From IMG/VR virus record IMGVR_UViG_2698536610_000003: a DNA stretch of 33,876 nucleotides, one strand, 5' to 3'. Below are positions 6,570-33,876 of this stretch, piece by piece. Numbering within the stretch: the first letter of the stretch is position 1; the number at the start of each line of letters is the position of its first letter. The notes below the pieces were generated by a model. That model was not told the DNA's origin, ran no database searches, and saw only the letters and a list, made by a program, of their open reading frames with translations. Source of the DNA: a virus (taxonomy: Duplodnaviria; Heunggongvirae; Uroviricota; Caudoviricetes). The translations under genes were made by a program, and so were the position numbers.

Positions 6570-6585
6570 AAATTATGGGGTTAAT

Positions 6586-9233: not shown

Positions 9234-9238
9234 GATGT

Positions 9239-14205: not shown

Positions 14206-14208
14206 CCG

Positions 14209-14952: not shown

Positions 14953-15051
14953 CAACCGAATGCGCCCCGCGCCAGGGCGGCACGCCGGTCAGTGAGGGTG
15001 AATCACCTGACACAGCACTGGCGTCCACCGCCCGACTTTTCAGAGGTAGTC

Positions 15052-15764: not shown

Positions 15765-15767
15765 CGC

Positions 15768-16546: not shown

Positions 16547-16560
16547 ACGGAGTAAACACC

Positions 16561-17544: not shown

Positions 17545-17974
17545 TGCCGTCACGGTGCTGAAAACCAGCCCCGAGATGCTGCGGATATTCGTGGATAACG
17601 GGAGTATTGCCTCCACACTGGCGACGTCGTTGTCATTCGAAAAGCGTTACACGCTCAATGTGATTGTGACCGACTTTACCGGTGATTTTGACCTGCTCAT
17701 TGTGCCGGTGCTGGCGTGGCTGCGGGAAAATCAGCCCGACATCATGACCACCGACGAAGGCCAGAAAAAGGGCTTCACGTTTTATGCAGACATCAACAAT
17801 GACAGCAGCTTTGATATCAGTATCAGCCTGATGCTGACCGAGCGCACGCTGGTCAGTGAGGTTGACGGTGCGCTGCATGTGAAGAATATCCCGGAACCTC
17901 CGCCGCCGGAGCCGGTCACCCGCCCGATGGAACTTTATATCAATGGTGAACTGGTGAGTAAGTGGGATGAATGA
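17507..17974 (+). CDS. R: tail completion protein R
   Basis: 155 aa, size and order as P2 R. Confidence 0.88.
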   Translation: MLKPDSLRRALTDAVTVLKTSPEMLRIFVDNGSIASTLATSLSFEKRYTLNVIVTDFTGDFDLLIVPVLAWLRENQPDIMTTDEGQKKGFTFYADINNDSSFDISISLMLTERTLVSEVDGALHVKNIPEPPPPEPVTRPMELYINGELVSKWDE

Positions 17975-18419
17975 GTTTAAGCGTTTTGAAGACCGGCTGA
18001 CCGGGCTGATTGAATCGCTGTCACCGTCAGGGCGTCGGCGACTGAGTGCCGAACTGGCGAAGCGCCTGCGGCAGAGTCAGCAGCGTCGGGTGATGGCACA
18101 GAAAGCCCCGGACGGCACACCCTACGCGCCACGCCAGCAGCAGAGCGCCAGAAAAAAGACCGGTCGTGTTAAGCGAAAAATGTTTGCGAAACTTATCACC
18201 AGTCGTTTTTTGCATATCCGCGCCAGCCCGGAGCAGGCATCAATGGAATTTTACGGCGGGAAGTCACCGAAAATCGCCAGTGTGCATCAGTTCGGTCTGT
18301 CGGAAGAAAACCGGAAAGACGGTAAGAAAATTGATTATCCGGCGCGTCCTCTGCTCGGCTTTACCGGTGAGGATGTGCAGATGATTGAAGAGATTATTCT
18401 GGCGCACCTCGACCGTTAG
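17967..18419 (+). CDS. S: tail completion protein S
   Basis: 150 aa, size and order as P2 S. Confidence 0.88.
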   Translation: MNEFKRFEDRLTGLIESLSPSGRRRLSAELAKRLRQSQQRRVMAQKAPDGTPYAPRQQQSARKKTGRVKRKMFAKLITSRFLHIRASPEQASMEFYGGKSPKIASVHQFGLSEENRKDGKKIDYPARPLLGFTGEDVQMIEEIILAHLDR

Positions 18420-18485
18420 TTGTGCCATTCCCGACACCTCATCGTCACATTGCCGCCGGTATGACCCGGCGGCATCCTTCCCGTT
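18420..18485 (+). promoter_or_regulatory. expected late promoter region for the V-W-J-I-H-G operon
   Basis: 66-bp intergenic gap before V, placed by P2 organisation; motif not confidently assigned. Confidence 0.35.
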
Positions 18486-19121
18486 ATGAACACTCTCGCA
18501 AATATTCAGGAACTCGCGCGCGCACTGCGCAACATGATCCGCACCGGCATTATCGTCGAAACCGACCTTAACGCCGGTCGCTGCCGTGTGCAGACCGGCG
18601 GCATGTGCACCGACTGGCTTCAGTGGCTGACCCATCGCGCCGGACGTTCGTGCACATGGTGGGCACCTTCCGTGGGGGAACAGGTGTTGATTCTGTCCGT
18701 GGGCGGTGAACTCGACACGGCGTTTGTTCTGCCGGGGATTTATTCCGGCGATAATCCCGCGCCGTCTGCGTCGGCGGATGCCCTGCATATCCGTTTCCCT
18801 GACGGGGCGGTGATTGAGTATGAACCCGAAACCAGTGCACTGACGGTAAGCGGAATTAAAACGGCCAGCGTGACGGCTTCTGATTCTGTTACTGCCACGG
18901 TGCCGGTGGTCATGGTGAAAGCATCAACCCGCATCACCCTGGACACACCGGAGGTGGTCTGCACCAACAGGCTGATTACCGGCACGCTGGAAGTGCAGAA
19001 GGGCGGGACGATGCGCGGCAACATTGAACACACCGGCGGTGAACTCTCATCAAACGGTAAGGTACTGCATACCCACAAACACCCCGGCGACAGCGGCGGC
19101 ACAACCGGGAGTCCTTTATGA
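18486..19121 (+). CDS. V: baseplate spike protein V
   Basis: 211 aa, size and order as P2 V. Confidence 0.9.
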   Translation: MNTLANIQELARALRNMIRTGIIVETDLNAGRCRVQTGGMCTDWLQWLTHRAGRSCTWWAPSVGEQVLILSVGGELDTAFVLPGIYSGDNPAPSASADALHIRFPDGAVIEYEPETSALTVSGIKTASVTASDSVTATVPVVMVKASTRITLDTPEVVCTNRLITGTLEVQKGGTMRGNIEHTGGELSSNGKVLHTHKHPGDSGGTTGSPL

Positions 19122-19465
19122 CAGCGCGTTATCTCGGAATGAATCGCAGTGATGGCCTGACGGTCATTGACCTTGAGCATATCAGCCAGAGTATCGGCGA
19201 TATCCTGCGCACACCGGTCGGCTCACGGGTGATGCGTCGTGATTACGGCTCGTTGCTGGCGTCAATGATTGACCAGCCGCAGACCCCGGCGCTTGAGTTG
19301 CAGATTAAGGTCGCCTGTTACATGGCCGTGCTGAAATGGGAACCCCGCGTCACCCTGTCATCCGTCACCACGGCGCGCAGTTTTGACGGGCGAATGACGG
19401 TCACGTTAACCGGTCAGCACAACGACACCGGCCAGCCACTTTCGTTAACCATCCCTGTGAGTTGA
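19118..19465 (+). CDS. W: baseplate protein W (gp25-like)
   Basis: 115 aa, 4-nt overlap with V, size and order as P2 W. Confidence 0.9.
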   Translation: MTARYLGMNRSDGLTVIDLEHISQSIGDILRTPVGSRVMRRDYGSLLASMIDQPQTPALELQIKVACYMAVLKWEPRVTLSSVTTARSFDGRMTVTLTGQHNDTGQPLSLTIPVS

Positions 19466-19469
19466 AATC

Positions 19470-20378
19470 ATGCCGATTATCGACCTGAACCAGCTACCCG
19501 CACCGGATGTGGTCGAGGAGCTGGACTTTGAAACCATTCTTGCCGAACGCAAGGCGACACTGATTTCCCTTTACCCGGAAGACCAGCAGGAGGCGGTCGC
19601 CCGTACCCTGACACTGGAATCTGAGCCTCTCGTCAAACTGCTGGAAGAAAATGCTTATCGTGAGCTTATCTGGCGTCAGCGTGTGAATGAGGCCGCACGG
19701 GCGGTGATGCTGGCCTGTGCCGCCGGTAATGACCTTGATGTGATTGGTGCCAATTACAACACCACGCGCCTGACTATCACCCCGGCAGATGATTCGACTA
19801 TCCCGCCGACACCGGCAGTGATGGAATCTGACACCGATTATCGTCTGCGTATTCAGCAGGCTTTTGAGGGCTTAAGCGTCGCCGGGTCAGTGGGAGCCTA
19901 TCAGTATCATGGCCGCAGTGCCGACGGGCGTGTCGCGGATATCTCTGTCACCAGTCCGTCTCCGGCCTGCGTCACTATCTCTGTGCTGTCACGTGAAAAT
20001 AACGGCGTCGCATCCGAAGACCTGCTGGCCGTGGTGCGTAACGCCCTTAATGGCGAGGACGTCAGACCGGTGGCCGACCGCGTGACCGTGCAGTCTGCCG
20101 CCATCGTTGAATACCAGATAAACGCCACGCTGTATCTTTACCCTGGTCCCGAAAGCGAACCCATCCGCGCTGCCGCCGTGAAAAAACTGGAAGCGTATAT
20201 CACTGCACAGCACCGGCTGGGGCGCGACATCCGTCTGTCTGCCATTTATGCCGCTTTGCATGTGGAAGGCGTGCAGCGTGTCGAGCTGGCCGAACCACTG
20301 GCCGACATTGTGCTCAACAGTACGCAGGCGTCTTTCTGTACCGAATACCGCGTCGTGACCGGAGGCTCGGATGAGTGA
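19470..20378 (+). CDS. J: baseplate wedge protein J
   Basis: 302 aa, size and order as P2 J. Confidence 0.9.
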   Translation: MPIIDLNQLPAPDVVEELDFETILAERKATLISLYPEDQQEAVARTLTLESEPLVKLLEENAYRELIWRQRVNEAARAVMLACAAGNDLDVIGANYNTTRLTITPADDSTIPPTPAVMESDTDYRLRIQQAFEGLSVAGSVGAYQYHGRSADGRVADISVTSPSPACVTISVLSRENNGVASEDLLAVVRNALNGEDVRPVADRVTVQSAAIVEYQINATLYLYPGPESEPIRAAAVKKLEAYITAQHRLGRDIRLSAIYAALHVEGVQRVELAEPLADIVLNSTQASFCTEYRVVTGGSDE

Positions 20379-20901
20379 TTCGCGCCTGCTGCCGACCGGC
20401 TCATCACCGCTTGAAGTTGCCGCCGCAAAAGCCTGTGCGGAAATTGAAAAAACGCCGGTCAGGATTCGTGAACTGTGGAACCCGGATACCTGTCCGGCAA
20501 ATCTGCTGCCGTGGCTGGCGTGGGCGTTTTCGGTCGACAGGTGGGATGAAAAGTGGCCGGAAGCGACAAAACGCGCCGTTATCCGCGATGCCTATTTCAT
20601 CCACTGTCATAAGGGCACTATCGGTGCAATCCGGCGTGTGGTGGAGCCGCTCGGCTATCTCATCAACGTGACGGAGTGGTGGGAAAACAGTGACCCGCCA
20701 GGCACCTTCCGGCTTGATATTGGTGTACTGGAAAGCGGCATCACAGAGGCAATGTATCAGGAAATGGAACGGCTGATTGCTGATGCCAAACCTGCAAGCC
20801 GCCACCTTATCGGCCTGAACATTACCCGGGACATTCCCGGCTACCTGTTCGCCGGTGGTGTGGCTTACGACGGCGATGTAATTACGGTTTACCCCGGATA
20901 A
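20371..20901 (+). CDS. I: baseplate/tail fibre attachment protein I
   Basis: 176 aa, overlaps J by 8 nt, size and order as P2 I. Confidence 0.9.
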   Translation: MSDSRLLPTGSSPLEVAAAKACAEIEKTPVRIRELWNPDTCPANLLPWLAWAFSVDRWDEKWPEATKRAVIRDAYFIHCHKGTIGAIRRVVEPLGYLINVTEWWENSDPPGTFRLDIGVLESGITEAMYQEMERLIADAKPASRHLIGLNITRDIPGYLFAGGVAYDGDVITVYPG

Positions 20902-20911
20902 GTGAGGAATA

Positions 20912-23230
20912 ATGAGCACAAAATTCAGAACCGTTATCACCACTGCCGGTGCAGCAAAGCTGGCAGCGGCAACCGCACCGGGAGGGCGGAAGGTCAACAT
21001 TACCACGATGGCCGTCGGGGATGGCGGTGGTAAATTGCCTGTCCCGGATGCCGGACAGACCGGACTTATTCACGAAGTCTGGCGACATACGCTGAACAAA
21101 ATCAGCCAGGACAAACGAAACAGTAATTATATTATCGCAGAGCTGGTTATTCCGCCGGAGGTGGGCGGTTTCTGGATGCGTGAGCTTGGCCTGTACGATG
21201 ATGCGGGAACGTTAATTGCCGTGGCGAACATGGCCGAAAGTTATAAGCCAGCTCTTGCCGAAGGCTCAGGGCGTTCGCAGACCTGTCGCATGGTCATCAT
21301 CGTCAGCAGTGTGGCCTCGGTGGAGCTGACCATTGACACCACAACGGTGATGGCGACACAGGATTACGTTGATGACAAAATTGCAGAGCACGAACAGTCA
21401 CGACGTCACCCGGACGCCTCGCTGACCGCAAAAGGTTTTACTCAGTTAAGCAGTGCGACCAACAGCACGTCTGAAACACTGGCCGCAACGCCGAAAGCGG
21501 TAAAGGCCGCCTATGACCTTGCTAACGGGAAATATACCGCACAGGACGCTACCACAGCACGAAAAGGCCTTGTCCAGCTCAGTAGTGCGACCAACAGCAC
21601 GTCTGAAACACTGGCCGCAACGCCGAAAGCGGTAAAGGCCGCCTATGACCTTGCTAACGGGAAATACACTGCACAGGACGCCACTACAGCGCGAAAAGGT
21701 CTTGCCCAGCTCAGTAGCGCCACCAACAGCGATTCTGAAACGCTTGCGGCAACACCAAAGGCGGTTAAGACAGCGTATGACCTTGCTAACGGGAAATACA
21801 CTGCACAGGATGCCACCACGGTGCGAAAAGGTCTTGTCCAGCTCAGTAGCGCCACCAACAGTGATTCTGAAACCCTCGCGGCAACGCCAAAAGCAGTGAA
21901 GTCTGCCTATGACAATGCTGAAAAACGTCTTCAGAAAGATCAGAACGGTGCGGATATTCCGGGAAAGGATACCTTCACGAAAAATATCGGTGCCTGTCGT
22001 GCTTATAGCGGCGCTTTGAGCACTGAAGCCGGAAACTGGACAACCGCTCAGTTTATTGAATGGCTGGATTCCCGTGGTGCATTTAATCATCCGTACTGGA
22101 TGTGCAAAGGCTCCTGGTCATATGCAAATAACAAAATCATTACGGATACCGGATGTGGTGATATCCACCTGGCTGGTTGTGTCGTCGAGGTCATGGGAAC
22201 TAAATCTGCAATCACTATCCGAGTGACCACGCCGACAACATCAAGTGGTGGCGGTACAACCAGCGCGCAATTCACTTACATTAATCATGGGGACGGCTAC
22301 TCCCCCGGCTGGCGTCGTGACTGGAATCGTCAGGGCGACTCAATGACCGGAACGATTAATCAGGATGGCGGAAGCCAGAATGCCTATATGTCTACGGCCT
22401 TATGTTCAGGCACCAGAGGCGGCAAAAAATATCTCAGAAAGTTTCGTGGTGGAGAAGGAGATACTATCTGGCATGAAACAGTACAGGGCGAGGTAATTCG
22501 CTGGGCGACAGGTAATACTGATGCTCGGGAAGAATTATCACTCAGCTCTGTTTATGGTCTTCGTTCAAGAGGTGAAATTACATCGCTCAGTGCTAATGGT
22601 CTGCGCGTTGCTTATGGCAATTATGGATTCTTTATCAGGAATGATGGCGGCAGCACATATTTAATGCTGACGGCCTCTGGCGATAAATTTGGGACATGGA
22701 ACGGCTTAAGACCGCTGACTATCAATAACGCCAATGGCGGAGTGTCAATGGGGCATGGCCTGAGTGTTACAGGTGATATTGTCTCAAGTACCAAAGTACG
22801 TGCCGGTAGCGGGAAAAAGTTCACGGTCAGCAGCAGCAATACATCCACGAAGGAAGCCGCATTCAATTTGTGGGGAAACTCAAGTCGTCCTGTGGTGGCT
22901 GAATTAGGTGATGATGCAGGCTGGCATTTTTACAGTCAGAGAAATACAGATAACAGCATCACTTTTGCTGTTAACGGTCAGGTATCACCATCTAACTATG
23001 GCAACTTTGATTCACGCTATGTCCGGGATATCCGGCTTGGTGGTGCTGCCACATACAAACCTGCGAACAATGGCATGACATGGACACATCAGGCACCGTC
23101 CGGGTGTGTATATTCTGGCATTATTGTTCAGGATACCGGCTCAAACTCTGCCGATAACATTGGTGGCGTATATTACAGACCGGTGCAGAAATACATTAAC
23201 GGGACATGGTATAACGTGGCACAGGTATAA
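20912..23230 (+). CDS. H: tail fibre protein H (mosaic: P2-like N-terminus, four tandem fibre repeats, divergent distal domain)
   Basis: 772 aa (P2 H is shorter as I recall); conserved N-terminal 170 aa; repeats QLSSATNS[TD]SETLAATPKAVK...; C-terminal half unlike P2 H. Confidence 0.88.
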   Translation: MSTKFRTVITTAGAAKLAAATAPGGRKVNITTMAVGDGGGKLPVPDAGQTGLIHEVWRHTLNKISQDKRNSNYIIAELVIPPEVGGFWMRELGLYDDAGTLIAVANMAESYKPALAEGSGRSQTCRMVIIVSSVASVELTIDTTTVMATQDYVDDKIAEHEQSRRHPDASLTAKGFTQLSSATNSTSETLAATPKAVKAAYDLANGKYTAQDATTARKGLVQLSSATNSTSETLAATPKAVKAAYDLANGKYTAQDATTARKGLAQLSSATNSDSETLAATPKAVKTAYDLANGKYTAQDATTVRKGLVQLSSATNSDSETLAATPKAVKSAYDNAEKRLQKDQNGADIPGKDTFTKNIGACRAYSGALSTEAGNWTTAQFIEWLDSRGAFNHPYWMCKGSWSYANNKIITDTGCGDIHLAGCVVEVMGTKSAITIRVTTPTTSSGGGTTSAQFTYINHGDGYSPGWRRDWNRQGDSMTGTINQDGGSQNAYMSTALCSGTRGGKKYLRKFRGGEGDTIWHETVQGEVIRWATGNTDAREELSLSSVYGLRSRGEITSLSANGLRVAYGNYGFFIRNDGGSTYLMLTASGDKFGTWNGLRPLTINNANGGVSMGHGLSVTGDIVSSTKVRAGSGKKFTVSSSNTSTKEAAFNLWGNSSRPVVAELGDDAGWHFYSQRNTDNSITFAVNGQVSPSNYGNFDSRYVRDIRLGGAATYKPANNGMTWTHQAPSGCVYSGIIVQDTGSNSADNIGGVYYRPVQKYINGTWYNVAQV
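21443..21928 (+). repeat. in-frame tandem repeat, 3 full copies of 132 bp (44 aa) plus a partial fourth, inside H
   Basis: Copies start at 21443, 21575, 21707, 21839; near-identical DNA with scattered synonymous and few non-synonymous differences. Confidence 0.9.
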
Positions 23231-23233
23231 TTT

Positions 23234-23761
23234 ATGCAGCATTTGATAAATATAACCGCGGGTAATCCAAAAACGGTTGAACAATATCAATTGACAAAGG
23301 ACTTTGATGTTGTCTGGTTTTTTACAGAAGATGGTAAGAACTGGTACGAAGAACAAAAGTATTTTGCTGATGACACGATAAAAATAGCGTACGACAAGGA
23401 TAATATTATCCGCTATATGGAAAAAGATGTGACAGCTATCAGACCAGATGGATTAAGTGTGGTTGAAGTGGCGGATATTACTGCTAACCGACGGGCGGAC
23501 ATTTCAGGGAACTGGATGTTTAAGGACGGCAAAGTGATTAAACGCATTTATACGGCAGAGGAATTGCAGCAGCAGGCAGAAAACCGGAAAGCCAGACTTC
23601 TTGCAGATGCTGAATCCGTGATTTTGCCGCTGGAGCGCGCGGTCAGACTGAACATGGCAACAGATGAGGAGCGTAGCCGACTGGATGCATGGGAGCGTTA
23701 CAGCGTTCTGGTCAGTCGTGTGGATCCTGCAAATCCTGAATGGCCGGAAATGCCGCAATAA
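23234..23761 (+). CDS. G: tail fibre assembly chaperone G
   Basis: 175 aa directly after H, same size and position as P2 G. Confidence 0.85.
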
Positions 23762-24043
23762 GTTGTATGAGCTCTGGTGTGAGCTTACATATCTATGGCA
23801 CAGAGTAAAGACTAATCTGACAGTCCGCTCTGTGCCAATAGCGGACGTAACAAGTATGATATTGGATGATGTTGCGAGGGGTGGTAGTCTGAAGCACGGC
23901 ATACGGCAATCGACCTAAAATGATGCCGTATTCAAGGAATTCTGGTATATGAGGCCTGTAAAATTGTTAACAGGATGCATACTTGTATGCAGCGCAAGTT
24001 ACCTTTAAGTTGGTTCAATTGAATAAACTATGTTTTCCCATGC

Positions 24044-24071
24044 TTGCATCATCGCTAGGTGAACATAAAAT
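24044..24071 (+). promoter_or_regulatory. candidate sigma70 promoter for the hotspot-2 cargo gene: -35 TTGCAT (24044..24049), 16-nt spacer, -10 TAAAAT (24066..24071)
   Basis: Hexamers and spacing read directly; about 36 bp upstream of ATG 24108, which has a GGAG RBS. Confidence 0.45.
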
Positions 24072-24107
24072 GTTCTGGAGATTAACGTTTAGGTTTATAG
24101 GAGCTTT

Positions 24108-25319
24108 ATGAGAGTAGAATTCACAGAAAGAACAAAGAATGTACTTGCTGGGAGAGCAGGATACCAATGTAGCCATCCTCAATGTTCAATAATAACTATT
24201 GGCCCAGGTGAAAAAGAGGATGAGACATCCAGCATCGGTGAGGCATCACATATTTATAGTGCAGCTAAAAATGGCCCCAGAGGGCAAGGTGGGCTAACAG
24301 AAGAACAGTTAAAAAGCCCTGAGAATGGAATTTGGCTATGTAAGGTACACGCAAGGTTAGTTGATACAAATAATGGAGCAGGATTTACCGCATCACAACT
24401 AATTAGTTGGAAAAAATATCATGAGGAATTCATTAAACATCACCAGGGAAGGATCGTCAATAAATTACATTGGATATCAAAACTATCAATAGTTGATAGT
24501 CCTTTATTTCAAGATTCAATAAGCATCGACTTTGCAAAAATAACAATTATTGAGAGTGATAGTAATGGCGCAGGGAAAACAGCAATATGCGAGTGGTTAT
24601 CAAGTGTCAGTGCAATAAATAGACTTGAGCGCTGGGTTAATTGTGAAAAGCTCAATATTGAAATTCATTTGCACACGCCAGAGCCACACTTAATTGAAGT
24701 GAGTGTAAATAGCGGAAGGATTTCCTATAAAGTTGATTCTCTTGACATTACCTCAAGTCCTTTTCCTTTTGCATGCTATTTTTTTGATTTTAATTACTCA
24801 AAGAAAAAATATAATAAAACATCTAACTTTTTTGCTGAGTTCATAAATATATCGCCAGTGCTACTTGAGAGTCTTTTTGATTATGTATGCAGAAACAAAA
24901 AAGGCATACTTAAATCAATCAGATTTGCTACTCAGGAAGAGCTGGAACAGGATGATGATAGTGAAGATGAAAAAGAGCGAGATATTCATGATATCTATTG
25001 CATGATACAAGGTAATGATTCTTATTTGCCTTTCGAGTGTTTATCTGGAAGTGAAAAAACTAGAGTGCTATTGGATGTTATAATCGCATCATTAAATGAG
25101 CGTTCCAAATACACACCGACACTACTTTTTATAGAAATGAATGAAACCTTTTTATCAAAGGAATCTTTTAAACCATACATTGAAAGATTGAATTCCATTG
25201 AGACTTCATTTCAAACCATCGTAACAACTCATTCGAACATATTAAATGAGTGTTCCGTAGGTTTTCCCCGTTATGAATTGATAAAAGGTATCAACACATC
25301 AACCTTGAGGAAAATATAA
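24108..25319 (+). CDS. HNH endonuclease fused to compact ABC-type (AAA_21-like) ATPase; candidate defence protein
   Basis: 403 aa. N-terminus: Zn-finger/HNH layout C21-x4-C26 ... ASHIY (H48) ... ENGIWLCKVH (N73, C78, H81) ... D86. C-terminus: Walker A-like SNGAGKT (K157), ABC signature-like LSGSEK (312-317), degenerate Walker B TLLFIEMNE (338-346), H-loop IVTTHS (H375). Strongly AT-rich. Confidence 0.75.
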   Translation: MRVEFTERTKNVLAGRAGYQCSHPQCSIITIGPGEKEDETSSIGEASHIYSAAKNGPRGQGGLTEEQLKSPENGIWLCKVHARLVDTNNGAGFTASQLISWKKYHEEFIKHHQGRIVNKLHWISKLSIVDSPLFQDSISIDFAKITIIESDSNGAGKTAICEWLSSVSAINRLERWVNCEKLNIEIHLHTPEPHLIEVSVNSGRISYKVDSLDITSSPFPFACYFFDFNYSKKKYNKTSNFFAEFINISPVLLESLFDYVCRNKKGILKSIRFATQEELEQDDDSEDEKERDIHDIYCMIQGNDSYLPFECLSGSEKTRVLLDVIIASLNERSKYTPTLLFIEMNETFLSKESFKPYIERLNSIETSFQTIVTTHSNILNECSVGFPRYELIKGINTSTLRKI

Positions 25320-25516
25320 AATAATCATTGTGTGATAAATTTTTAAAATGCCATTGTTTGTCAGGTCGAACTGGGTAAATGGATATAGTATTCATTCAAT
25401 AAACTGAATAAACCGTTGTCAACGTCCGCTCCTCGCTCAAAGCAGACAGTCAGATTTGATAGCATTTGGGCTATGTAAATTGTCAGGCGGAAAATGAGTG
25501 AGTACAAATCAGGACA

Positions 25517-25544
25517 GGCGGGCGAATTGCCCGCCTTTTCTTTA
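25517..25544 (+). terminator. rho-independent terminator after cargo gene (GGCGGGC-gaatt-GCCCGCC followed by TTTTCTTTA)
   Basis: Perfect 7-bp GC stem, 5-nt loop and T-rich tract read directly, about 200 bp past the cargo stop and just upstream of FI. Confidence 0.75.
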
Positions 25545-25545
25545 T

Positions 25546-25639
25546 CTGTTGTTTCATCCACTGACCAGCCAGGTCAAATAGCGTCTCATGCTCTGCACAA
25601 CAGAAAATAGTTGCACCCATTAACCACGGAGTTAAACGG
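25546..25639 (+). promoter_or_regulatory. expected late promoter region for the FI-FII-E-T-U-D operon
   Basis: Region between cargo terminator and FI start, placed by P2 organisation; motif not confidently assigned. Confidence 0.35.
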
Positions 25640-26830
25640 ATGAGTGACTATCATCACGGCGTGCAGGTGCTGGAGATTAACGACGGCACCCGCGTCATTT
25701 CCACCGTATCCACGGCCATTGTCGGCATGGTCTGCACGGCCAGCGATGCGGATGCGGAAACCTTCCCCCTCAATAAACCGGTGCTGATTACCAATGTGCA
25801 GAGTGCAATTGCAAAGGCCGGTAAAAAAGGCACGCTGGCGGCATCGTTGCAGGCCATCGCCGACCAGTCAAAACCGGTCACCGTTGTCGTGCGTGTGGAA
25901 GACGGCACCGGCGACGACGAGGAAGCGAAACTCGCGCAGACCGTTTCCAATATCATCGGCACCACTGACGAAAACGGTCAGTACACCGGACTGAAAGCCC
26001 TGCTGGCGGCGGAGTCGGTAACCGGTGTTAAACCGCGTATTCTCGGCGTGCCGGGGCTGGATACCAAAGAGGTGGCTGTTGCACTGGCATCAGTCTGTCA
26101 GAAGCTGCGCGCTTTCGGATATATCAGCGCATGGGGCTGTAAAACCATTTCCGAGGTGAAAGCCTACCGCCAGAATTTCAGCCAGCGTGAGCTGATGGTC
26201 ATCTGGCCGGATTTCCTCGCATGGGATACGGTCACCAGTACCACCGCCACCGCGTATGCCACCGCCCGTGCGCTGGGTCTGCGCGCTAAAATCGACCAGG
26301 AGCAGGGCTGGCATAAAACGCTGTCCAACGTCGGGGTGAACGGTGTTACCGGCATCAGCGCATCTGTATTCTGGGATTTGCAGGAGTCCGGCACCGATGC
26401 TGACCTGCTTAATGAGTCAGGCGTCACAACGCTGATTCGCCGCGACGGTTTCCGCTTCTGGGGTAACCGTACCTGCTCTGATGACCCGCTGTTCCTCTTT
26501 GAAAACTACACCCGCACCGCGCAGGTGCTGGCCGACACGATGGCTGAGGCGCACATGTGGGCGGTGGACAAGCCCATCACCGCAACGCTGATTCGCGACA
26601 TCGTTGACGGCATCAATGCCAAATTCCGTGAGCTGAAAACAAACGGCTATATCGTGGATGGCTCATGCTGGTTCAGCGAAGAATCCAACGATGCGGAAAC
26701 CCTCAAGGCCGGAAAACTGTATATCGACTACGACTATACACCGGTGCCTCCTCTCGAAAACCTGACCCTGCGCCAGCGTATTACCGATAAATACCTGGCA
26801 AATCTGGTCACCTCGGTTAACAGCAATTAA
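25640..26830 (+). CDS. FI: tail sheath protein FI
   Basis: 396 aa, same size and position as P2 FI. Confidence 0.93.
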   Translation: MSDYHHGVQVLEINDGTRVISTVSTAIVGMVCTASDADAETFPLNKPVLITNVQSAIAKAGKKGTLAASLQAIADQSKPVTVVVRVEDGTGDDEEAKLAQTVSNIIGTTDENGQYTGLKALLAAESVTGVKPRILGVPGLDTKEVAVALASVCQKLRAFGYISAWGCKTISEVKAYRQNFSQRELMVIWPDFLAWDTVTSTTATAYATARALGLRAKIDQEQGWHKTLSNVGVNGVTGISASVFWDLQESGTDADLLNESGVTTLIRRDGFRFWGNRTCSDDPLFLFENYTRTAQVLADTMAEAHMWAVDKPITATLIRDIVDGINAKFRELKTNGYIVDGSCWFSEESNDAETLKAGKLYIDYDYTPVPPLENLTLRQRITDKYLANLVTSVNSN

Positions 26831-26842
26831 GGAGCCTGACCG

Positions 26843-27361
26843 ATGGCAATGCCGCGCAAACTCAAGTTAATGAACGTCTTTCTGAACGGCTACAGCTATC
26901 AGGGCGTTGCAAAGTCCGTCACGCTGCCAAAACTGACCCGTAAGCTCGAAAACTATCGCGGTGCGGGGATGAACGGCAGCGCACCGGTAGACCTCGGCCT
27001 TGATGACGATGCGCTGTCAATGGAGTGGTCGCTCGGGGGCTTCCCGGATTCGGTTATCTGGGAGCTTTACGCCGCAACCGGCGTGGATGCCGTGCCGATT
27101 CGTTTTGCAGGCTCTTACCAGCGCGACGATACCGGCGAAACGGTGGCCGTCGAAGTGGTCATGCGTGGCCGTCAGAAAGAAATCGACACCGGTGAGGGTA
27201 AACAGGGAGAAGACACCGAGTCGAAAATCTCCGTGGTCTGCACCTATTTCCGGCTGACGATGGACGGTAAGGAGCTGGTCGAAATCGACACCATCAACAT
27301 GATTGAGAAGGTGAACGGCATCGACCGGCTGGAGCAACACCGCCGCAATATCGGCCTGTGA
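26843..27361 (+). CDS. FII: tail tube protein FII
   Basis: 172 aa, same size and position as P2 FII; AAGGAG RBS. Confidence 0.93.
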   Translation: MAMPRKLKLMNVFLNGYSYQGVAKSVTLPKLTRKLENYRGAGMNGSAPVDLGLDDDALSMEWSLGGFPDSVIWELYAATGVDAVPIRFAGSYQRDDTGETVAVEVVMRGRQKEIDTGEGKQGEDTESKISVVCTYFRLTMDGKELVEIDTINMIEKVNGIDRLEQHRRNIGL

Positions 27362-27368
27362 TTTTCAT

Positions 27369-27389
27369 CCGGTCAGCCAGGCTGACCGG
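27369..27389 (+). other. 21-bp perfect palindrome ccggtcagccaggctgaccgg between FII and E (8-bp stem hairpin, no U-tract)
   Basis: Inverted repeat read directly; lies in the 56-bp FII-E gap. Confidence 0.6.
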
Positions 27390-27417
27390 TTAACCCTGAT
27401 TCAGAAGTGAGAAAACC

Positions 27418-27693
27418 ATGAACAAAGAAAATGTCATTACCCTGGAAAATCCGGTCAATCGTGGTGAGCAGGTCATCGAACAGGTCACGCTGATGAAACC
27501 TAACGCCGGGACGCTGCGCGGTGTCAGTCTGGCAGCGGTCGCGAACTCCGAAGTCGATGCACTGATTAAGGTGCTGCCGCGCATGACGGCACCGATGCTG
27601 ACCGAGCAGGAAGTCGCCGCGCTGGAACTGCCTGACCTTGTGGCGCTGGCCGGTAAGGTGGTCGGTTTTTTGTCGCCGAACTCGGTGCAGTGA
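27418..27693 (+). CDS. E: tail assembly chaperone E
   Basis: 91 aa, same size and position as P2 E. Confidence 0.88.
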   Translation: MNKENVITLENPVNRGEQVIEQVTLMKPNAGTLRGVSLAAVANSEVDALIKVLPRMTAPMLTEQEVAALELPDLVALAGKVVGFLSPNSVQ

Positions 27694-27845
27694 CGTTTCC
27701 AAAAAATCTCTCGGTCGATGACCTGATGGCGGATGTGGCAGTGATATTTCACTGGCCGCCATCAGAACTGTATCCCATGAGCCTGACCGAACTCATCACA
27801 TGGCGCGAAAAGGCGCTCCGGCGAAGCGGAAACACGAATGAGTAA
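27418..27845 (+). CDS. E+E': tail assembly chaperone E+E' made by programmed -1 frameshift at T_TTT_TTG (27666..27672)
   Basis: Slippery heptamer in the E frame; the -1 frame is open from 27672 to TAA 27843..27845, giving 85 + 57 = 142 aa, the length I recall for P2 E+E'; overlaps the T start. Confidence 0.75.
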
Positions 27846-30285
27846 CAATGTAAAATTACAGGTATTGCTCAGGGCTGTTGACCAGGCATCCCGCCCGTTT
27901 AAATCCATCCGCACAGCGAGTAAGTCGCTGTCGGGGGATATCCGGGAAACACAAAAATCACTGCGCGAGCTGAACGGTCACGCATCCCGTATTGAGGGAT
28001 TTCGCAAGACCAGCGCACAGCTTGCCGTGACTGGTCATGCACTTGAAAAGGCTCGGCAGGAGGCCGAAGCCCTTGCCACACAGTTTAAAAACACTGAACG
28101 TCCGACCCGTGCTCAGGCGAAAGTGCTGGAATCCGCAAAGTGTGCGGCGGAGGACTTACAGGCGAAATATAACCGCCTGACAGATTCCATTAAACGCCAG
28201 CAGCGGGAACTGGCCGCTGTGGGAATTAATACCCGCAATCTTGCACATGATGAGCAGGGACTGAAAAACCGTATCAGTGAAACCACCGCACAGCTTAACC
28301 GTCAGCGTGACGCACTGGCGCGTGTCAGTGCACAACAGGCAAAACTTAACGCAGTAAAACAGCGTTATCAGGCAGGCAAGGAACTGGCCGGAAATATGGC
28401 CTCGGTGGGCGCTGCCGGTGTGGGGATTGCGGCGGTGGGAACGATGGCCGGAGTTAAGCTGCTGATGCCCGGTTATGAGTTTGCGCAGAAAAACTCAGAA
28501 TTGCAGGCCGTGCTCGGTGTGGCAAAAGATTCCGCCGAAATGGCCGCGCTACGCAAACAGGCGCGCCAGCTCGGCGACAATACCGCCGCCTCGGCGGATG
28601 ATGCGGCCGGTGCACAGATAATCATCGCGAAAGCGGGTGGGGATGTTGATGCCATTCAGGCGGCAACGCCGGTCACGCTGAATATGGCGCTGGCGAACCG
28701 CCGCACGATGGAAGAAAACGCCGCCCTGCTGATGGGGATGAAATCCGCCTTTCAGCTTTCAAACGATAAGGTCGCTCATATCGGGGATGTTCTCTCCATG
28801 ACGATGAACAAAACCGCCGCCGATTTTGACGGCATGAGCGATGCGCTGACCTATGCCGCACCTGTGGCAAAAAATGCCGGTGTCAGCATTGAAGAAACCG
28901 CCGCAATGGTCGGGGCGCTGCATGATGCAAAAATCACAGGCTCAATGGCGGGGACGGGAAGCCGTGCCGTGTTAAGTCGCCTGCAGGCACCGACGGGAAA
29001 AGCATGGGATGCACTGAAAGAGCTTGGCGTGAAAACCTCAGACAGTAAGGGAAACACCCGACCAGTATTTACCATTCTGAAAGAAATGCAGGCCAGTTTT
29101 GAGAAAAACCGGCTCGGTACTGCCCAGCAGGCTGAATACATGAAAACCATTTTCGGGGAGGAGGCCAGCTCAGCCGCCGCCGTGCTGATGACTGCCGCCT
29201 CAACCGGAAAGCTGGACAAACTGACCGCTGCGTTTAAAGCCTCAGACGGGAAGACCGCCGAGCTGGTAAATATCATGCAGGACAACCTCGGCGGTGACTT
29301 TAAGGAGTTTCAGTCCGCTTATGAGGCGGTGGGGACTGACCTGTTTGACCAGCAAGAAGGCACACTGCGTAAGCTCACGCAGACGGTCACAAAGTATGTG
29401 TTAAAACTCGACGGCTGGATACAGAAAAACAAATCACTGGCGTCAACCATTGGCCTCATTGCCGGTGGCGCACTGGCGCTGACTGGTGTCATCGGTGCCA
29501 TTGGTCTTGTAGCCTGGCCGGTTATCACCGGCATCAATGCCATTATCGCGGCAGCAGGCGCAATGGGGGCAATCTTCACGACGGTTGGCAGTGCTGTTAT
29601 GACGGCCATCGGGGCGATTAGCTGGCCGGTTGTGGCCGTGGTGGCCGCCATTGTCGCCGGGGCGTTGCTTATCCGTAAATATTGGGAGCCTGTCAGCGCA
29701 TTCTTTGGCGGTGTGGTGGAAGGGCTGAAAGCGGCATTTGCGCCGGTGGGGGAACTGTTCACGCCACTTAAGCCGGTGTTTGACTGGCTGGGCGAAAAGT
29801 TACAGGCCGCGTGGCAGTGGTTTAAAAACCTGATTGCCCCGGTCAAAGCCACCCGGGACACCCTGAACCGTTGCCGTGACACGGGCGTCATGTTCGGGCA
29901 GGCACTGGCTGACGCGCTGATGCTGCCGCTTAATGCGTTCAACAAACTGCGCAGCGGTATTGACTGGGTACTGGAAAAACTCGGTGTTATCAACAAAGAG
30001 TCAGACACACTTGACCAGACCGCCGCAAGGACTCATGCCGCCACGTATGGCACCGGTGGGTATATTCCGGCGACCAGCTCTTATGTAGGCTATCAGGCTT
30101 ATCAGCCGGTCACGGCACCGGCTGGCCGCTCTTATGTGGACCAGAGTAAAAACGAATATCACATCAACCTGACGGGCGGTACTGCGCCGGGGACACAGCT
30201 TGACCGCCAGTTACAGGATGCGCTCGAAAAATACGAGCGGGATAAACGTGCGCGCGCCCGTGCCAGCATGATGCATGACGGTTAA
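27838..30285 (+). CDS. T: tail tape measure protein T
   Basis: 815 aa, helical N-terminal half and Gly/Ala-rich hydrophobic segment; same size as P2 T. Confidence 0.93.
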   Translation: MSNNVKLQVLLRAVDQASRPFKSIRTASKSLSGDIRETQKSLRELNGHASRIEGFRKTSAQLAVTGHALEKARQEAEALATQFKNTERPTRAQAKVLESAKCAAEDLQAKYNRLTDSIKRQQRELAAVGINTRNLAHDEQGLKNRISETTAQLNRQRDALARVSAQQAKLNAVKQRYQAGKELAGNMASVGAAGVGIAAVGTMAGVKLLMPGYEFAQKNSELQAVLGVAKDSAEMAALRKQARQLGDNTAASADDAAGAQIIIAKAGGDVDAIQAATPVTLNMALANRRTMEENAALLMGMKSAFQLSNDKVAHIGDVLSMTMNKTAADFDGMSDALTYAAPVAKNAGVSIEETAAMVGALHDAKITGSMAGTGSRAVLSRLQAPTGKAWDALKELGVKTSDSKGNTRPVFTILKEMQASFEKNRLGTAQQAEYMKTIFGEEASSAAAVLMTAASTGKLDKLTAAFKASDGKTAELVNIMQDNLGGDFKEFQSAYEAVGTDLFDQQEGTLRKLTQTVTKYVLKLDGWIQKNKSLASTIGLIAGGALALTGVIGAIGLVAWPVITGINAIIAAAGAMGAIFTTVGSAVMTAIGAISWPVVAVVAAIVAGALLIRKYWEPVSAFFGGVVEGLKAAFAPVGELFTPLKPVFDWLGEKLQAAWQWFKNLIAPVKATRDTLNRCRDTGVMFGQALADALMLPLNAFNKLRSGIDWVLEKLGVINKESDTLDQTAARTHAATYGTGGYIPATSSYVGYQAYQPVTAPAGRSYVDQSKNEYHINLTGGTAPGTQLDRQLQDALEKYERDKRARARASMMHDG

Positions 30286-30299
30286 GGAGGTGACGAAAA

Positions 30300-30779
30300 A
30301 TGATGCTCGCGTTAGGTATGTTTGTTTTTATGCGCCAGACGCTGCCACACCAGACCATGCAGCGTGAATCAGATTATCGCTGGCCGTCAAATTCCCGTAT
30401 AGGTAAACGGGATGCCTACCAGTTTCTCGGTGTGGGTGAGGAAAACATCACGCTTGCCGGTGTGCTTTATCCCGAACTGACCGGCGGCAAGCTGACGATG
30501 ACCACGCTCAGGCTGATGGCCGAGGGAGGCCGGGCGTGGCCGTTGCTGGATGGCACCGGCATGATTTACGGCATGTATGTCATCAGCAGGGTGAGTGAAA
30601 CAGGGAGTATTTTCTTTGCAGACGGCACACCCCGGAAAATTGATTTTACGCTGTCGCTCACCCGCGTTGATGAATCACTGGCCGCGCTTTATGGCGATAT
30701 CGGTAAACAGGCGGAATCGCTCATCGGTAAGGCTGGCAGTATGGCGACTAAATTCACGGGTATGACGGGGGCGGGATAA
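30300..30779 (+). CDS. U: tail protein U
   Basis: 159 aa, same size and position as P2 U. Confidence 0.9.
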   Translation: MMLALGMFVFMRQTLPHQTMQRESDYRWPSNSRIGKRDAYQFLGVGEENITLAGVLYPELTGGKLTMTTLRLMAEGGRAWPLLDGTGMIYGMYVISRVSETGSIFFADGTPRKIDFTLSLTRVDESLAALYGDIGKQAESLIGKAGSMATKFTGMTGAG

Positions 30780-31942
30780 TGCTGGATGCACTGACATTTG
30801 ATGCAGGCAGTACGCTGACGCCGGATTACATGCTGATGCTCGACAGCAGGGATATTACCGGCAATATCAGCGACCGTCTGATGAGCATGACCCTGACGGA
30901 TAACCGGGGCTTTGAGGCTGACCAGCTTGATATTGAACTGGACGATGCCGACGGGCAGGTCGGGCTGCCGGTTCGTGGCGCTGTCCTGACGGTGTATATC
31001 GGCTGGAAAGGTTTTGCCCTGGTATGCAAAGGGAAATTTACCGTTGATGAGGTTGAACACCGGGGCGCACCGGATGTGGTCACCATCCGCGCCCGGAGTG
31101 CAGATTTTCGCGGGACGCTCAATTCCCGCCGGGAAGGATCATGGCATGACACCACGCTCGGTGCGATTGTTGAGGCGATAGCCTCCCGTAACAGGCTGGA
31201 AGCCAGTGTCGCTCCGTCACTGGCCAGAATTAAAATTCCGCACATCGACCAGTCGCAGGAGTCTGATGCAAAATTCCTGACCCGCCTTGCAGAACGCAAC
31301 GGCGGTGAGGTGTCGGTAAAAATGGGAAAACTGTTGTTTCTCAAAGCGGGGCAGGGGGTGACGGCCAGCGGTAAAAAAATCCCGCAGATTACCATCACCC
31401 GCAGTGACGGCGACCGCCATCATTTTGCGATTGCTGACCGTGGAGCCTATACCGGCGTAACGGCAAAGTGGCTTCACACCAAAGACCCGAAGCCGCAAAA
31501 GCAGAAGGTAAAACTGAAACGCAAAAAGAAAGAGAAACACCTGCGCGCACTGGAGCACCCGAAAGCGAAACCGGTCACGCAGAAGAAAGCGCCAAAAGTA
31601 CCGGAAGCGCGCGAAGGTGAATACATGGCCGGTGAGGCTGACAACGTTTTTGCCCTGACCACGGTATATGCCACGAAAGCGCAGGCCATGCGCGCCGCTC
31701 AGGCGAAGTGGGATAAGCTGCAACGGGGCGTGGCGGAGTTCTCCATCAGCCTGGCTACCGGTCGGGCAGATATTTACACGGAAACGCCAGCCAGAGTGTC
31801 TGGCTTTAAGCGCGTCATAGACGAGCAGGACTGGACAATCACTAAGGTGACACATTTTCTGAATAATAGCGGCTTCACGACGTCCTTGGAGCTTGAGGTC
31901 AGGCTTTCTGATGTGGAGTACGAAACAGAAGGTAATGAGTGA
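30779..31942 (+). CDS. D: tail protein D
   Basis: 387 aa, start overlaps U stop; same size and position as P2 D. Confidence 0.9.
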   Translation: MLDALTFDAGSTLTPDYMLMLDSRDITGNISDRLMSMTLTDNRGFEADQLDIELDDADGQVGLPVRGAVLTVYIGWKGFALVCKGKFTVDEVEHRGAPDVVTIRARSADFRGTLNSRREGSWHDTTLGAIVEAIASRNRLEASVAPSLARIKIPHIDQSQESDAKFLTRLAERNGGEVSVKMGKLLFLKAGQGVTASGKKIPQITITRSDGDRHHFAIADRGAYTGVTAKWLHTKDPKPQKQKVKLKRKKKEKHLRALEHPKAKPVTQKKAPKVPEAREGEYMAGEADNVFALTTVYATKAQAMRAAQAKWDKLQRGVAEFSISLATGRADIYTETPARVSGFKRVIDEQDWTITKVTHFLNNSGFTTSLELEVRLSDVEYETEGNE

Positions 31943-32023
31943 TGTGTTTTATTTATCTGTTTGTTTTATAAGGATAAATTAACTAAAATGGCACCATCAA
32001 CAAAACCGGAAGAGGTGCTCGCG

Positions 32024-32242
32024 ATGTTTCATTGTCCTTTATGCCAGCATGCCGCACATGCGCGTACAAGCCGCTATATCACTGACACGACAAAAGAGCG
32101 TTATCACCAGTGTCAGAACGTGAATTGCAGCGCCACGTTCATCACTTATGAGTCGGTACAGCGATACATCGTAAAGCCGGGAGAAGTCCACGCCGTAAGG
32201 CCGCACCCGTTACCGTCAGGGCAGCAAATTATGTGGATGTAA
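32024..32242 (+). CDS. ogr: late transcription activator Ogr (zinc finger)
   Basis: 72 aa from ATG 32024 (track start 31961 is upstream in frame); CPLCQ...CQNVNC zinc-binding motif; last gene before attR. Confidence 0.9.
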   Translation: MFHCPLCQHAAHARTSRYITDTTKERYHQCQNVNCSATFITYESVQRYIVKPGEVHAVRPHPLPSGQQIMWM

Positions 32243-32253
32243 TTACAAACAGA

Positions 32254-32279
32254 AAGCCCCTCAGTCGAGGGGCTTTTTT
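32254..32279 (+). terminator. rho-independent terminator after ogr (AAGCCCCTC-agtc-GAGGGGCTT followed by TTTTTT)
   Basis: Perfect 9-bp stem, 4-nt loop and T6 tract read directly, 12 nt after the ogr stop. Confidence 0.8.
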
Positions 32280-32280
32280 G

Positions 32281-32308
32281 TCGATGTGGTCAATGTGTGG
32301 ACGTGACC
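32281..32308. repeat. phage P-arm element tcgatgtggtcaatg...gacgtgaccag (candidate Int arm-type site), near-copy at 430..458
   Basis: Direct comparison with left flank; lies in the att P arm between the ogr terminator and the core. Confidence 0.5.
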
Positions 32309-32343
32309 AGAAATAAATCCTTTTATTTCATTGAATTACGCGT

Positions 32344-32370
32344 AAAAAATAAGCCCGTGTAAGGGAGATT
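32344..32370. repeat. attR: attR core (aaaaaataagcccgtgtaagggagatt), identical to 477..503
   Basis: Exact direct repeat of the left core; coincides with the 3' end of cyaR. Confidence 0.9.
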
Positions 32371-32430
32371 ACACAGGCTAAGGAGGTGGTTCCTGGTACA
32401 GCTAGCATTTTATGGGTTATGTTTTTCAGC
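32344..32430 (-). ncRNA. cyaR: CyaR (RyeE) small regulatory RNA, 87 nt
   Basis: Minus-strand sequence GCUGAAAAACAUAACCCAUAAAAUGCUAGCUGUACCAGGAACCACCUCCUUAGCCUGUGUAAUCUCCCUUACACGGGCUUAUUUUUU matches CyaR as I recall it, including the CACCUCCUUA seed region; located next to yegQ as in E. coli. Confidence 0.88.
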
Positions 32431-32437
32431 GAAACGG

Positions 32438-32480
32438 ATGATAACCTTAATAAATGCAGCTGTATGTGATCGGTTTCTAA
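32438..32480 (-). promoter_or_regulatory. cyaR promoter: -10 TATCAT (plus 32438..32443) and CRP-like site TGTGA-N6-TCTAA (32465..32480) centred near -42
   Basis: -10 hexamer 7 nt upstream of the inferred CyaR 5' end; CRP half-site consensus TGTGA with partial second half; CyaR is known to be CRP-cAMP activated (class II geometry). Confidence 0.6.
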
Positions 32481-32514: not shown

Positions 32515-33876
32515 TCACTTACCGTGGGGATTACGCGTGGTTTCCCCGGAGAAATTACGCATCAGCAGCGCGTAATTGAGCTCAAGATCCTGCGGGACCG
32601 GGAGCCACACAGTATAACCATCGCCTGGTGCTATCGGCATAGCTTCGCCTTTGGCGTTTTCCATGTGCTCAAGGGTAAAATTAATGTTGCCTTGCGGCGT
32701 CATCAGCTCAAGGCTGTCGCCAACGGAGAATTTATTTTTCACCGCTACCGCCGCGAGGTCCCCCTTGCGCTCACCGGTAAACTCACCAACAAACTGCTGG
32801 CGGTCAGAAACTGAATAACCGTATTCGTAGTTCTGATAATCGTCGTGAGTATGACGACGCAGGAAACCTTCGGTATAGCCACGATGCGCCAGACCTTCCA
32901 GAGTTTCCAGCAGGCTGGTATCGAACGGTTTTCCCGCAGCGGCGTCATCGATAGCTTTGCGGTAAACCTGTGCGGTGCGTGCACAATAGTAGAAAGATTT
33001 GGTACGACCTTCGATTTTCAGCGAATGCACGCCCATTTTGGTCAGGCGTTCTACATGGGCGATGGCGCGCAGATCTTTCGAGTTCATGATGTAAGTGCCG
33101 TGCTCATCTTCAAACGCGGTCATATACTCGCCCGGACGCTGGGCCTCTTCGATCATAAACACTTTGTCGGTTGGTGCGCCGATACCCAGCGTCGGCTCAA
33201 CATTTTGCACCGGAATCGGCTCGTACTTGTGTACGATGTTGCCAACATCATCTTCTTTCCCTTCCTGGACGTTGTACTCCCAGCGGCAGGCGTTGGTGCA
33301 GGTGCCCTGGTTCGGGTCGCGCTTGTTGATATAGCCAGAGAGCAGGCAGCGACCGGAGTAGGCCATGCACAGCGCGCCGTGAACGAAGATCTCGATCTCC
33401 ATATCCGGCACCTGATTGCGGATCTCTTCAATCTCTTCCAGCGACAGCTCGCGAGAGAGGATCACGCGGGTCAGGCCCATTTGCTGCCAGAATTTCACCG
33501 TCGCCCAGTTCACGGCGTTAGCCTGCACCGAAAGGTGGATCGGCATTTCAGGGAAGTGCTCACGCACCAGCATAATCAGCCCTGGATCGGACATAATCAG
33601 CGCATCCGGCCCCATTTCCACCACCGGTTTCAGGTCACGGATAAAGGTTTTCAGCTTGGCGTTGTGCGGTGCAATGTTGACCACGACATAAAACTTTTTC
33701 CCCAGCGCGTGGGCTTCATTGATGCCGAGCTGAAGATTTTCGTGGTTGAATTCGTTGTTGCGCACACGCAGGGAATAACGCGGCTGGCCCGCATAAACAG
33801 CATCTGCGCCATAAGCGAAAGCGTAACGCATATTTTTCAGCGTTCCCGCCGGGGAAAGGAGTTCCGGTTTAAACAT
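32515..33876 (-). CDS. yegQ: peptidase U32-family protein YegQ (host flank)
   Basis: 453-aa complete ORF (start ATG at the window edge), sequence I recognise as E. coli YegQ; convergent with ogr. Confidence 0.9.
   Translation of the reverse strand: MFKPELLSPAGTLKNMRYAFAYGADAVYAGQPRYSLRVRNNEFNHENLQLGINEAHALGKKFYVVVNIAPHNAKLKTFIRDLKPVVEMGPDALIMSDPGLIMLVREHFPEMPIHLSVQANAVNWATVKFWQQMGLTRVILSRELSLEEIEEIRNQVPDMEIEIFVHGALCMAYSGRCLLSGYINKRDPNQGTCTNACRWEYNVQEGKEDDVGNIVHKYEPIPVQNVEPTLGIGAPTDKVFMIEEAQRPGEYMTAFEDEHGTYIMNSKDLRAIAHVERLTKMGVHSLKIEGRTKSFYYCARTAQVYRKAIDDAAAGKPFDTSLLETLEGLAHRGYTEGFLRRHTHDDYQNYEYGYSVSDRQQFVGEFTGERKGDLAAVAVKNKFSVGDSLELMTPQGNINFTLEHMENAKGEAMPIAPGDGYTVWLPVPQDLELNYALLMRNFSGETTRNPHGK

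Follow-up and report, generated by a model that had tools for sequence, protein, structure and literature searches.

A P2-type prophage at the 3' end of the small RNA gene cyaR, with an intact cyaR sequence at the right junction

Introduction

What becomes of a small RNA (sRNA) gene when a prophage is found at its 3' end? The window, by which we mean the whole 33,876-nt stretch of DNA analysed here (IMG/VR record IMGVR_UViG_2698536610_000003), raises this question at its right-hand end, where a P2-type prophage adjoins cyaR (ryeE). An earlier sequence-only reading had proposed that the right attachment core (attR) coincides exactly with the last 27 nt of CyaR, that integration leaves cyaR intact and places a copy of its 3' terminus at the left junction (attL), and that the cyaR promoter, with a CRP-like site in the class II position, is kept on the host side.

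That reading had also remarked that sRNA genes are less widely appreciated as integration targets than tRNA genes. As a P2-type attachment site, cyaR is in fact already known, frequently occupied and well understood. Bobay et al. describe ryeE in Escherichia coli as “previously known to be targeted by phages”, citing Wassarman et al. 2001 (PMC3603311), and the E. coli W genome paper gives “cyaR RNA” as the insertion site of Wphi2 in strain W, of ogr-D' in K-12 and of P2*B in strain B (PMC3032704). The remark is a fair one, given that a 2011 survey by P2 specialists stated that P2-type integrases insert “between other genes” and did not name cyaR (PMC3448106), though the fact itself is established. 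Here, we ask whether the gene is intact in the window, and which of its nucleotides came from the phage.

Results

The cyaR gene and its promoter

A cmscan search of the whole window against Rfam returned one match, CyaR_RyeE, at 32347-32432 on the minus strand, with a score of 100.7 bits against a gathering score of 47 (E 3.3e-19) and coverage of model positions 1-85/85. Alignment with the cyaR gene annotated in MG1655 (b4438, 2167114-2167200), which served as our K-12 reference, showed 100% identity over 87/87 nt and over 90 nt of upstream promoter. It was in K-12 that CyaR was experimentally characterised. The distance from the end of trhP, the gene upstream, to cyaR is 84 nt in K-12 and the same in the window. 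The identification of 32344-32430 as cyaR was thus upheld by both the Rfam score and the K-12 alignment. The positions of all features are collected in Table 1.

Table 1. Features of the prophage, its attachment sites and the host flanks, with positions in the window
Feature	Position	Strand	Basis and remarks
yegR, left-flank host gene	1..318	+	annotated in 100%-identical E. coli matches; same K-12 neighbourhood
Decayed copy of the P2 P-arm Int site in the host B arm	430..459		TGTGGTCA at 434-441 intact, second repeat decayed
attL core	477..503		27 nt, displaced copy of the cyaR 3' terminus; exact repeat, with P' arm and int to the right
P2-like (Peduovirus) prophage body	504..32343		phage genome identity
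Cox-binding region, P' arm (predicted)	520..593		P2 homology, coordinates transferred
int, P2-type tyrosine integrase, 337 aa	583..1596	-	Pfam, PHROG
P' arm Int arm-type sites (predicted)	591..617		P2 Int P' arm; TGTGGACA at 592-599 and 603-610
ogr, late-gene activator, last phage gene	32024..32242	+	Pfam Ogr_Delta 1.1e-21
ogr/F-operon terminator hairpin	32253..32276		terminator scan; homologous to annotated P2 terminator
P arm Int arm-type sites (predicted)	32281..32308		P2 Int P arm by homology; TGTGGTCA at 32285-32292, TGTGGACG at 32296-32303
P-arm IHF site (predicted)	32312..32345		transferred from P2 feature by homology
attR core	32344..32370		27 nt, CyaR nt 61-87; exact repeat, ends with the Rfam hit and K-12 cyaR
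cyaR (ryeE) sRNA gene, 87 nt, sequence-intact	32344..32430	-	Rfam RF00112, K-12 b4438 identity, fold
CyaR intrinsic terminator stem-loop	32352..32379	-	terminator scan and MFE structure
cyaR promoter	32438..32480	-	K-12 promoter identity; CRP motif match with 2 mismatches
trhP (yegQ), right-flank host gene	32515..33876	-	annotated under genome matches; start codon at window edge

The minimum-free-energy (MFE) fold of CyaR (z = -3.0) consists of a 4-bp hairpin exposing the CCACCUCC seed loop and an 11-bp terminator, followed by UAUUUUUU; the terminator scan likewise gave 11 pairs, a 6-nt loop and the tail TATTTTTT. In sRNAs of this kind, the terminator and poly-U tail are the region bound by Hfq. 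An Rfam score above the threshold, identity and position shared with K-12, and a seed hairpin together with a Rho-independent terminator that has a U-tail all place the gene in the CyaR/RyeE family.

Upstream of the gene, the -10 box TATCAT lies at 32438-32443 (-13 to -8) and is itself preceded by the CRP-like site TGTGATCGGTTTCTAA at 32465-32480, which reads TTAGA-N6-TCACA in the sense orientation. The centre of this site falls at -42.5 from the annotated 5' end (32430), or at -41.5 if the start is one base upstream. Our promoter and terminator scan found no sigma-70 -35 hexamer at the cyaR promoter, as expected for an activator-dependent promoter. In the window as a whole, matches to the CRP motif with up to 2 mismatches were not above chance (22 found, 14.9 expected), so the claim of a CRP site rests on the identity of the promoter with that of K-12. 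The promoter with its CRP-like site is indeed kept on the host side, unchanged from K-12. As for its class, the spacing appears class-II-like, and the earlier assignment stands as a statement about position only; the dependence of cyaR on CRP, like that on Hfq, comes from papers on K-12 and Salmonella as they are quoted in the citing literature.

The 27-nt repeat

The 27-mer AAAAAATAAGCCCGTGTAAGGGAGATT (plus strand) occurs exactly twice in the window, at 477-503 and 32344-32370. In 100 shuffles of the sequence, none contained a match, even with 3 mismatches allowed. Read along the RNA, the copy at attR takes in the final 2 nt of the terminator stem's 5' half, then the 6-nt loop, all of the 3' half and the UAUUUUUU tail; the rest of the 5' half, at 32371-32379, is host-only sequence. 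The coordinates and the 27-nt length given for this overlap by the sequence-only reading proved exact. Its view that cyaR is left intact also agrees with our comparison, since the sequence at attR is identical both to K-12 cyaR and to the gene in empty sites.

At attL, a copy of the cyaR 3' terminus is present as had been claimed, but its physical origin is the reverse of what the claim implied: it is the host end that moved there. We considered the attL copy as a possible terminator for int and rejected this idea, because folding of 470-590 on the minus strand (z = -1.7) produced no hairpin at the core. The only stem in this fold, of 15 bp, lies further upstream in the Cox-site region. It corresponds to a strong hairpin at 524-577 (minus strand) just downstream of the int stop codon, in the region homologous to the P2 Cox site, and it has no U-tract. 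We regard the attL copy as inert, as it would form no terminator when separated from the 5' half of the stem.

The prophage and its reconstructed attP

The DNA between the repeats is a prophage of 31.9 kb, with int at its left end and ogr at its right end. For positions 504-24000, identity to Escherichia phages 10W and P24C9 was 97.3%, with 93% of the length covered, and identity to P2 was 96.6%; positions 25421-32343 showed 97.7% identity to the tail, D and ogr genes of Peduovirus. The int product matched the Pfam profiles Int_N (1.3e-24) and Phage_integrase (8.7e-22) as well as PHROG 1, integrase (3e-85).

To reconstruct attP (305 nt), we fused the right end of the prophage, up to attR, to its left end, beginning with the attL core. 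This sequence is present, uninterrupted, in the genomes of free phages, with 99.3% identity in P22H4 and 9W and 97.7% identity in P2 (24233-24537), where the alignment shows no net indel. GenBank record AF063097 (P2) annotates the identical 27 nt as attP between ogr and int, and around them it marks the ogr terminator, an Int P-arm site, an IHF site, the Cox region and an Int P'-arm site. By homology with this annotation, we predict Int, IHF and Cox sites at the corresponding places in the window. The repeats in both of its arms match tgTGGaCa, the arm-type consensus of P2-type phages (PMC3448106). The prophage thus has the marks of a P2-type integration module: a shared core that is identical to P2 attP and adjoins int, arm repeats on both sides, and attB and attP sequences that exist uninterrupted in other strains and in free phages. 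The repeat had been read as the att core of the integrated phage, and its identity to P2 attP and its location between ogr and int bear this out.

Since free P2-type phages really do carry 27 of the 87 nt of cyaR, in the form of their attP core, cyaR might be seen as a phage-borne sRNA gene (a moron) and not as a targeted host gene. Yet the core in free phages continues into the P' arm and int, not into the body of cyaR, and the 60-nt body and promoter of cyaR occur only once in the window, outside the repeat. Moreover, of 5426 E. coli genomes, 5424 have this body and promoter beside trhP, with or without a prophage, and they are found there across Enterobacterales. We consider a phage origin of the gene extremely unlikely and treat cyaR as the host target.

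The prophage also carries cargo genes. The old/tin cargo slot of P2, which separates gene A from the late genes, holds a ShosTA anti-phage pair at 6586-8911 (minus strand); ShosT (6586-7869) was matched over its full length by PADLOC (E 4e-296), and ShosA (7862-8911) was matched with E 5e-231. In the Z/fun slot, which has the tail-fibre assembly gene on one side and the sheath gene FI on the other, lies an ORF of 403 aa (24108-25319, plus strand). Its N-terminus is HNH endonuclease-like (PADLOC PDC-M68A, 3.6e-22; CBASS-type endonuclease effectors, 1e-17), and its C-terminus shows faint similarity to AAA-ATPases (GajA/PtuA, about 1e-4). There was no Pfam match to this ORF, and 24000-25421 had no megablast match in the best phage hits; the ORF is probably a defence cargo gene. 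In the late region, 21430-21919 holds three tandem copies of a 132-nt unit, the other two being 87% and 80% identical to the first, presumably within a tail-fibre gene.

Empty sites, occupied sites and remnants in E. coli

To obtain the empty site, we joined window positions 1-476 to the sequence from 32344 onward. The reconstructed sequence was found in one piece at 100% identity in many E. coli genomes, where it is annotated as yegR | yegQ(trhP). Comparison with empty-site strains, which the sequence-only reading had suggested, thus revealed that the predicted yegR-cyaR-trhP attB exists exactly as reconstructed.

A count over 5426 complete E. coli genomes found the yegR|int junction in 808 (~15%) and the ogr|cyaR junction in 1219 (~22%). 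We attribute the excess of about 400 genomes with an ogr|cyaR junction to remnants such as that of K-12, in which 0.6 kb of P2 sequence remains at the cyaR site, annotated as “cryptic prophage PR-X” (ogrK, yegZ; 2167183-2167811) and starting inside cyaR.

The host DNA to the left of attL (the B arm) also bears traces of a phage arm. Local alignment matched TCGATGTGGTCAATG-GAAGACGGTGACCAG in the B arm with TCGATGTGGTCAATGTGTGGAC-GTGACCAG of the phage at 32281-32310, at a score of 38 compared with 14.6 +/- 2.3 for shuffled sequences, and none of 1000 shuffles reached 38. This relic lies about 16 nt nearer to the core than the P-arm site of the phage does, and AAGGGAGATT, the right-hand 10 nt of the core, is repeated at 418-427. 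As the relic was also found in unoccupied sites of other strains, the supposedly virgin attB appears to be what an earlier P2-type attR left behind. In a separate IMG/VR contig (2713896897_000015; L135/L181), the host side of the attL core is a P-arm-like sequence instead of the usual B arm, an arrangement that indicates tandem or successive P2-type insertions at cyaR.

Such remnants invite the view that the element in the window is itself a decaying cryptic prophage that can no longer excise, like the K-12 ogrK remnant, in which case the att sites would be fossils and the word lysogen a misnomer. Decay is common at the locus, judging by the difference between the two junction counts and by the 0.6-kb remnant in K-12, and the host B arm itself resembles an older scar. 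The insert in the window, however, has its full length, with 93% coverage at 97% identity to isolated phages; both cores are perfect and all arm sites match those of P2; and int and ogr are full-length ORFs with complete domains. We therefore regard decay of this element as unlikely, and the prophage would probably still be excision-competent.

Integration at the cyaR 3' end

Taking these results together, the arrangement almost certainly arose through integration of a P2-type Peduovirus, whose Int recombined its attP core site-specifically with the last 27 bp of cyaR, which are identical in sequence. Under this model, a heterobivalent tyrosine integrase would carry out Campbell integration, with strand exchange inside the 27-bp core, at the classical P2 site between yegR and yegQ/trhP. 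The left junction (attL) would then consist of the host B arm, the core, and the P' arm with int, and the right junction (attR) of ogr and the P arm, the core, and the cyaR body. Within the attR core, the left part (the U-tail and at least part of the 3' half of the stem) would derive from the phage and the right part from the host. From the host alone would come the cyaR promoter, the seed region and, of the 11 nt in the 5' half of the terminator stem, the 9 that lie outside the core; the remaining 2 belong to the core.

Because the phage brings its own, identical cyaR 3' end, the gene is not destroyed. As both cores are identical here, the CyaR sequence is unchanged, and its terminator and poly-U tail are intact. 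On these sequence grounds, we infer that CyaR should be expressed normally in the lysogen.

Core polymorphism and the direction of exchange

The window alone cannot locate the exchange, because its two cores are identical. Empty sites of E. coli are, though, naturally polymorphic in the core, and some lysogens have different core alleles at attL and attR. The polymorphic loci that we used were E. coli L275 (SK1144), L276 (510016) and L280 (strain 4/4) and the IMG/VR pairs L139/L156 and L277/L256. In E. coli, the core and terminator vary at positions 13 and 15 (GCCCGTGT, GCCTGTGT and, rarely, GCCTGCGT), and all of the E. coli variants keep the stem paired through U-A/U.G switches.

The clearest case came from two E. 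coli strains. In strain 4/4 (CP023826), the site is empty and its core allele is T13, and in strain 4/1-1 (CP023844) a 33.7-kb insert separates an attL core with T13 from an attR core with C13. The two share one B-arm substitution over the 75 nt compared, with TATTAAGG where the window has TATGAAGG; on the strength of this substitution, a shared study and a shared Swedish faecal source, we assumed them to be close relatives. One IMG/VR prophage displays the same arrangement of T13 at attL and C13 at attR. Core position 13 thus travels with the left arm, the host 3' end being displaced to attL, and the phage supplies at least RNA nt 75-87 of the functional cyaR. A core covering nt 61-87, with the host T13 at attL and the phage C13 at attR inside cyaR, conforms to the paradigm of integration into the 3' end of an RNA gene.

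A second prophage (L139/L156) has unlike cores at attL and attR, with differences at positions 13 and 15. If this pair is read like the T13 pair, the limit would move to nt 73 and the exchange would fall within AAUCUCCCUUAC, a sequence that forms the loop region and is upper-case (highly conserved) in the Rfam consensus. We rejected placing the crossover from L139/L156 alone, as a symmetric pair cannot tell which parent contributed each allele. Parentage is settled by T13 only, because T13 is linked to the host B-arm marker both in empty sites and at attL.

For Int cleavage, these data set bounds only: it would take place to the right of position 13, or to the right of position 15 if the second (V/E) pair is read likewise. 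Our prediction is that Int cleaves at two sites, both rightward of core position 13 and in or beside GTGTAAGGGAGATT, the conserved terminator loop. Our literature search for the cleavage positions of P2 Int returned only reference-list entries.

cyaR cores in other genera

To look beyond E. coli, we scanned one genome per species for cyaR, holding the seed and loop fixed and leaving the stem free, and obtained at least 120 loci. Across genera, the cyaR terminator stem shows covariation among the matches listed. Two Citrobacter youngae genomes and one other enterobacterium have P2-type ogr and D genes (65-74% amino acid identity, found with Ogr and gpD as queries) immediately 3' of cyaR, where E. 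albertii carries a P-arm-like relic. A tblastn search with Int gave no match in the 8-kb cyaR loci of other genera, as would be expected because int lies about 30 kb from cyaR.

The core variant GCCTGCGT, which is typical of Citrobacter and Kosakonia, was found in 32 IMG/VR prophage stretches, usually beside a matching cyaR body. Because variant cores adjoin matching bodies, P2-type phages can be said to track the local terminator sequence. In two IMG/VR stretches (L169 and L273; contigs 2568526497_000005 and 3300011591_000012), an Enterobacter cyaR body is joined to an E. coli-type core. The resulting terminator stem has a C.A mismatch, and its predicted hairpin has -12.0 kcal/mol compared with -18.1 kcal/mol for matched pairs.

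One tentative reading, which we think possible though doubtful, is that P2-type phages overwrite the CyaR terminator and poly-U across Enterobacteriaceae, which would give rise to core polymorphism, weaken mismatched stems by about 6 kcal/mol and make the canonical attB an ancient P2-type scar. Its premise is that the last 13-15 nt of CyaR, or more, could be phage-derived in every lysogen. If the reading is true, lysogeny changes the abundance of CyaR or the choice of its 3' end, which would amount to lysogenic conversion via a host sRNA. These overwriting and scar effects concern other genomes; neither applies to the window, in which the host and phage cores are identical.

For the strain in the window, we give little credence to the proposal that integration alters CyaR function, whether by affecting termination or Hfq binding or by causing read-through into the prophage. 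Phage DNA does physically form the 3' end at attR, and in other host-phage pairs this end differs from the native allele, as the C.A mismatch and the weakened hairpin of the two Enterobacter records illustrate; beyond the U-tract, ACGCGT... also replaces ATGCAT.... All 87 nt in the window are nevertheless the same as in K-12 and in the empty-site gene, and the phage P-arm sequence that follows the gene is shared with K-12, but for 1 mismatch in 44 nt. Altered function is accordingly very improbable here, and an unaltered CyaR remains our preferred reading.

Discussion

The window offers a clean example of the 3' end of an sRNA gene serving as a phage attachment site, as tRNA genes do for other phages. 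It allows the prophage boundaries to be set to the base, at 477 and 32370. In annotation, cyaR should be marked as intact across attR, and the 27-nt copy at attL should not be taken for a functionally significant gene fragment. Otherwise, the locus adds nothing new on CyaR or on P2 biology. Two points are mildly new: the population evidence that a phage supplies the terminal nucleotides of an sRNA, and the relic arm site in an “empty” site.

Compared with P2 itself, the window has the same 27-nt core in an att region that is 97.7% identical, and the order of elements is the same: ogr, P arm (Int, IHF), core, P' arm (Cox, Int) and int. Elsewhere in its genome, the prophage is closest to 10W and P24C9, with ShosTA and the HNH-domain gene in place of the P2 genes old, tin and Z/fun. 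The K-12 remnant ogrK-yegZ occupies the same position beside cyaR and trhP, but the prophage in the window is complete and that of K-12 is not. From the P2-type elements of E. coli W, B and K-12, which have the same locus and phage type, our case shows no difference of substance; it is another strain.

More distant parallels are phage 186, which integrates into the 3' end of a tRNA-Ile gene, and Fels-2 and SopE-phi, which integrate into that of ssrA. Integrators of tRNA and tmRNA genes likewise use a tyrosine integrase and a core that lies over the 3' end of a structured RNA, and they supply a replacement end (PMC3448106), the host end being displaced to the far junction in the same way. The cyaR site differs from these in that its target is an Hfq-dependent regulatory sRNA and its core covers an intrinsic terminator rather than a T-arm or acceptor stem. 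In Salmonella, sdsR/ryeB is another enterobacterial sRNA gene reported to be targeted by prophages, with a different sRNA and different phages (PMC3603311, PMC3333887).
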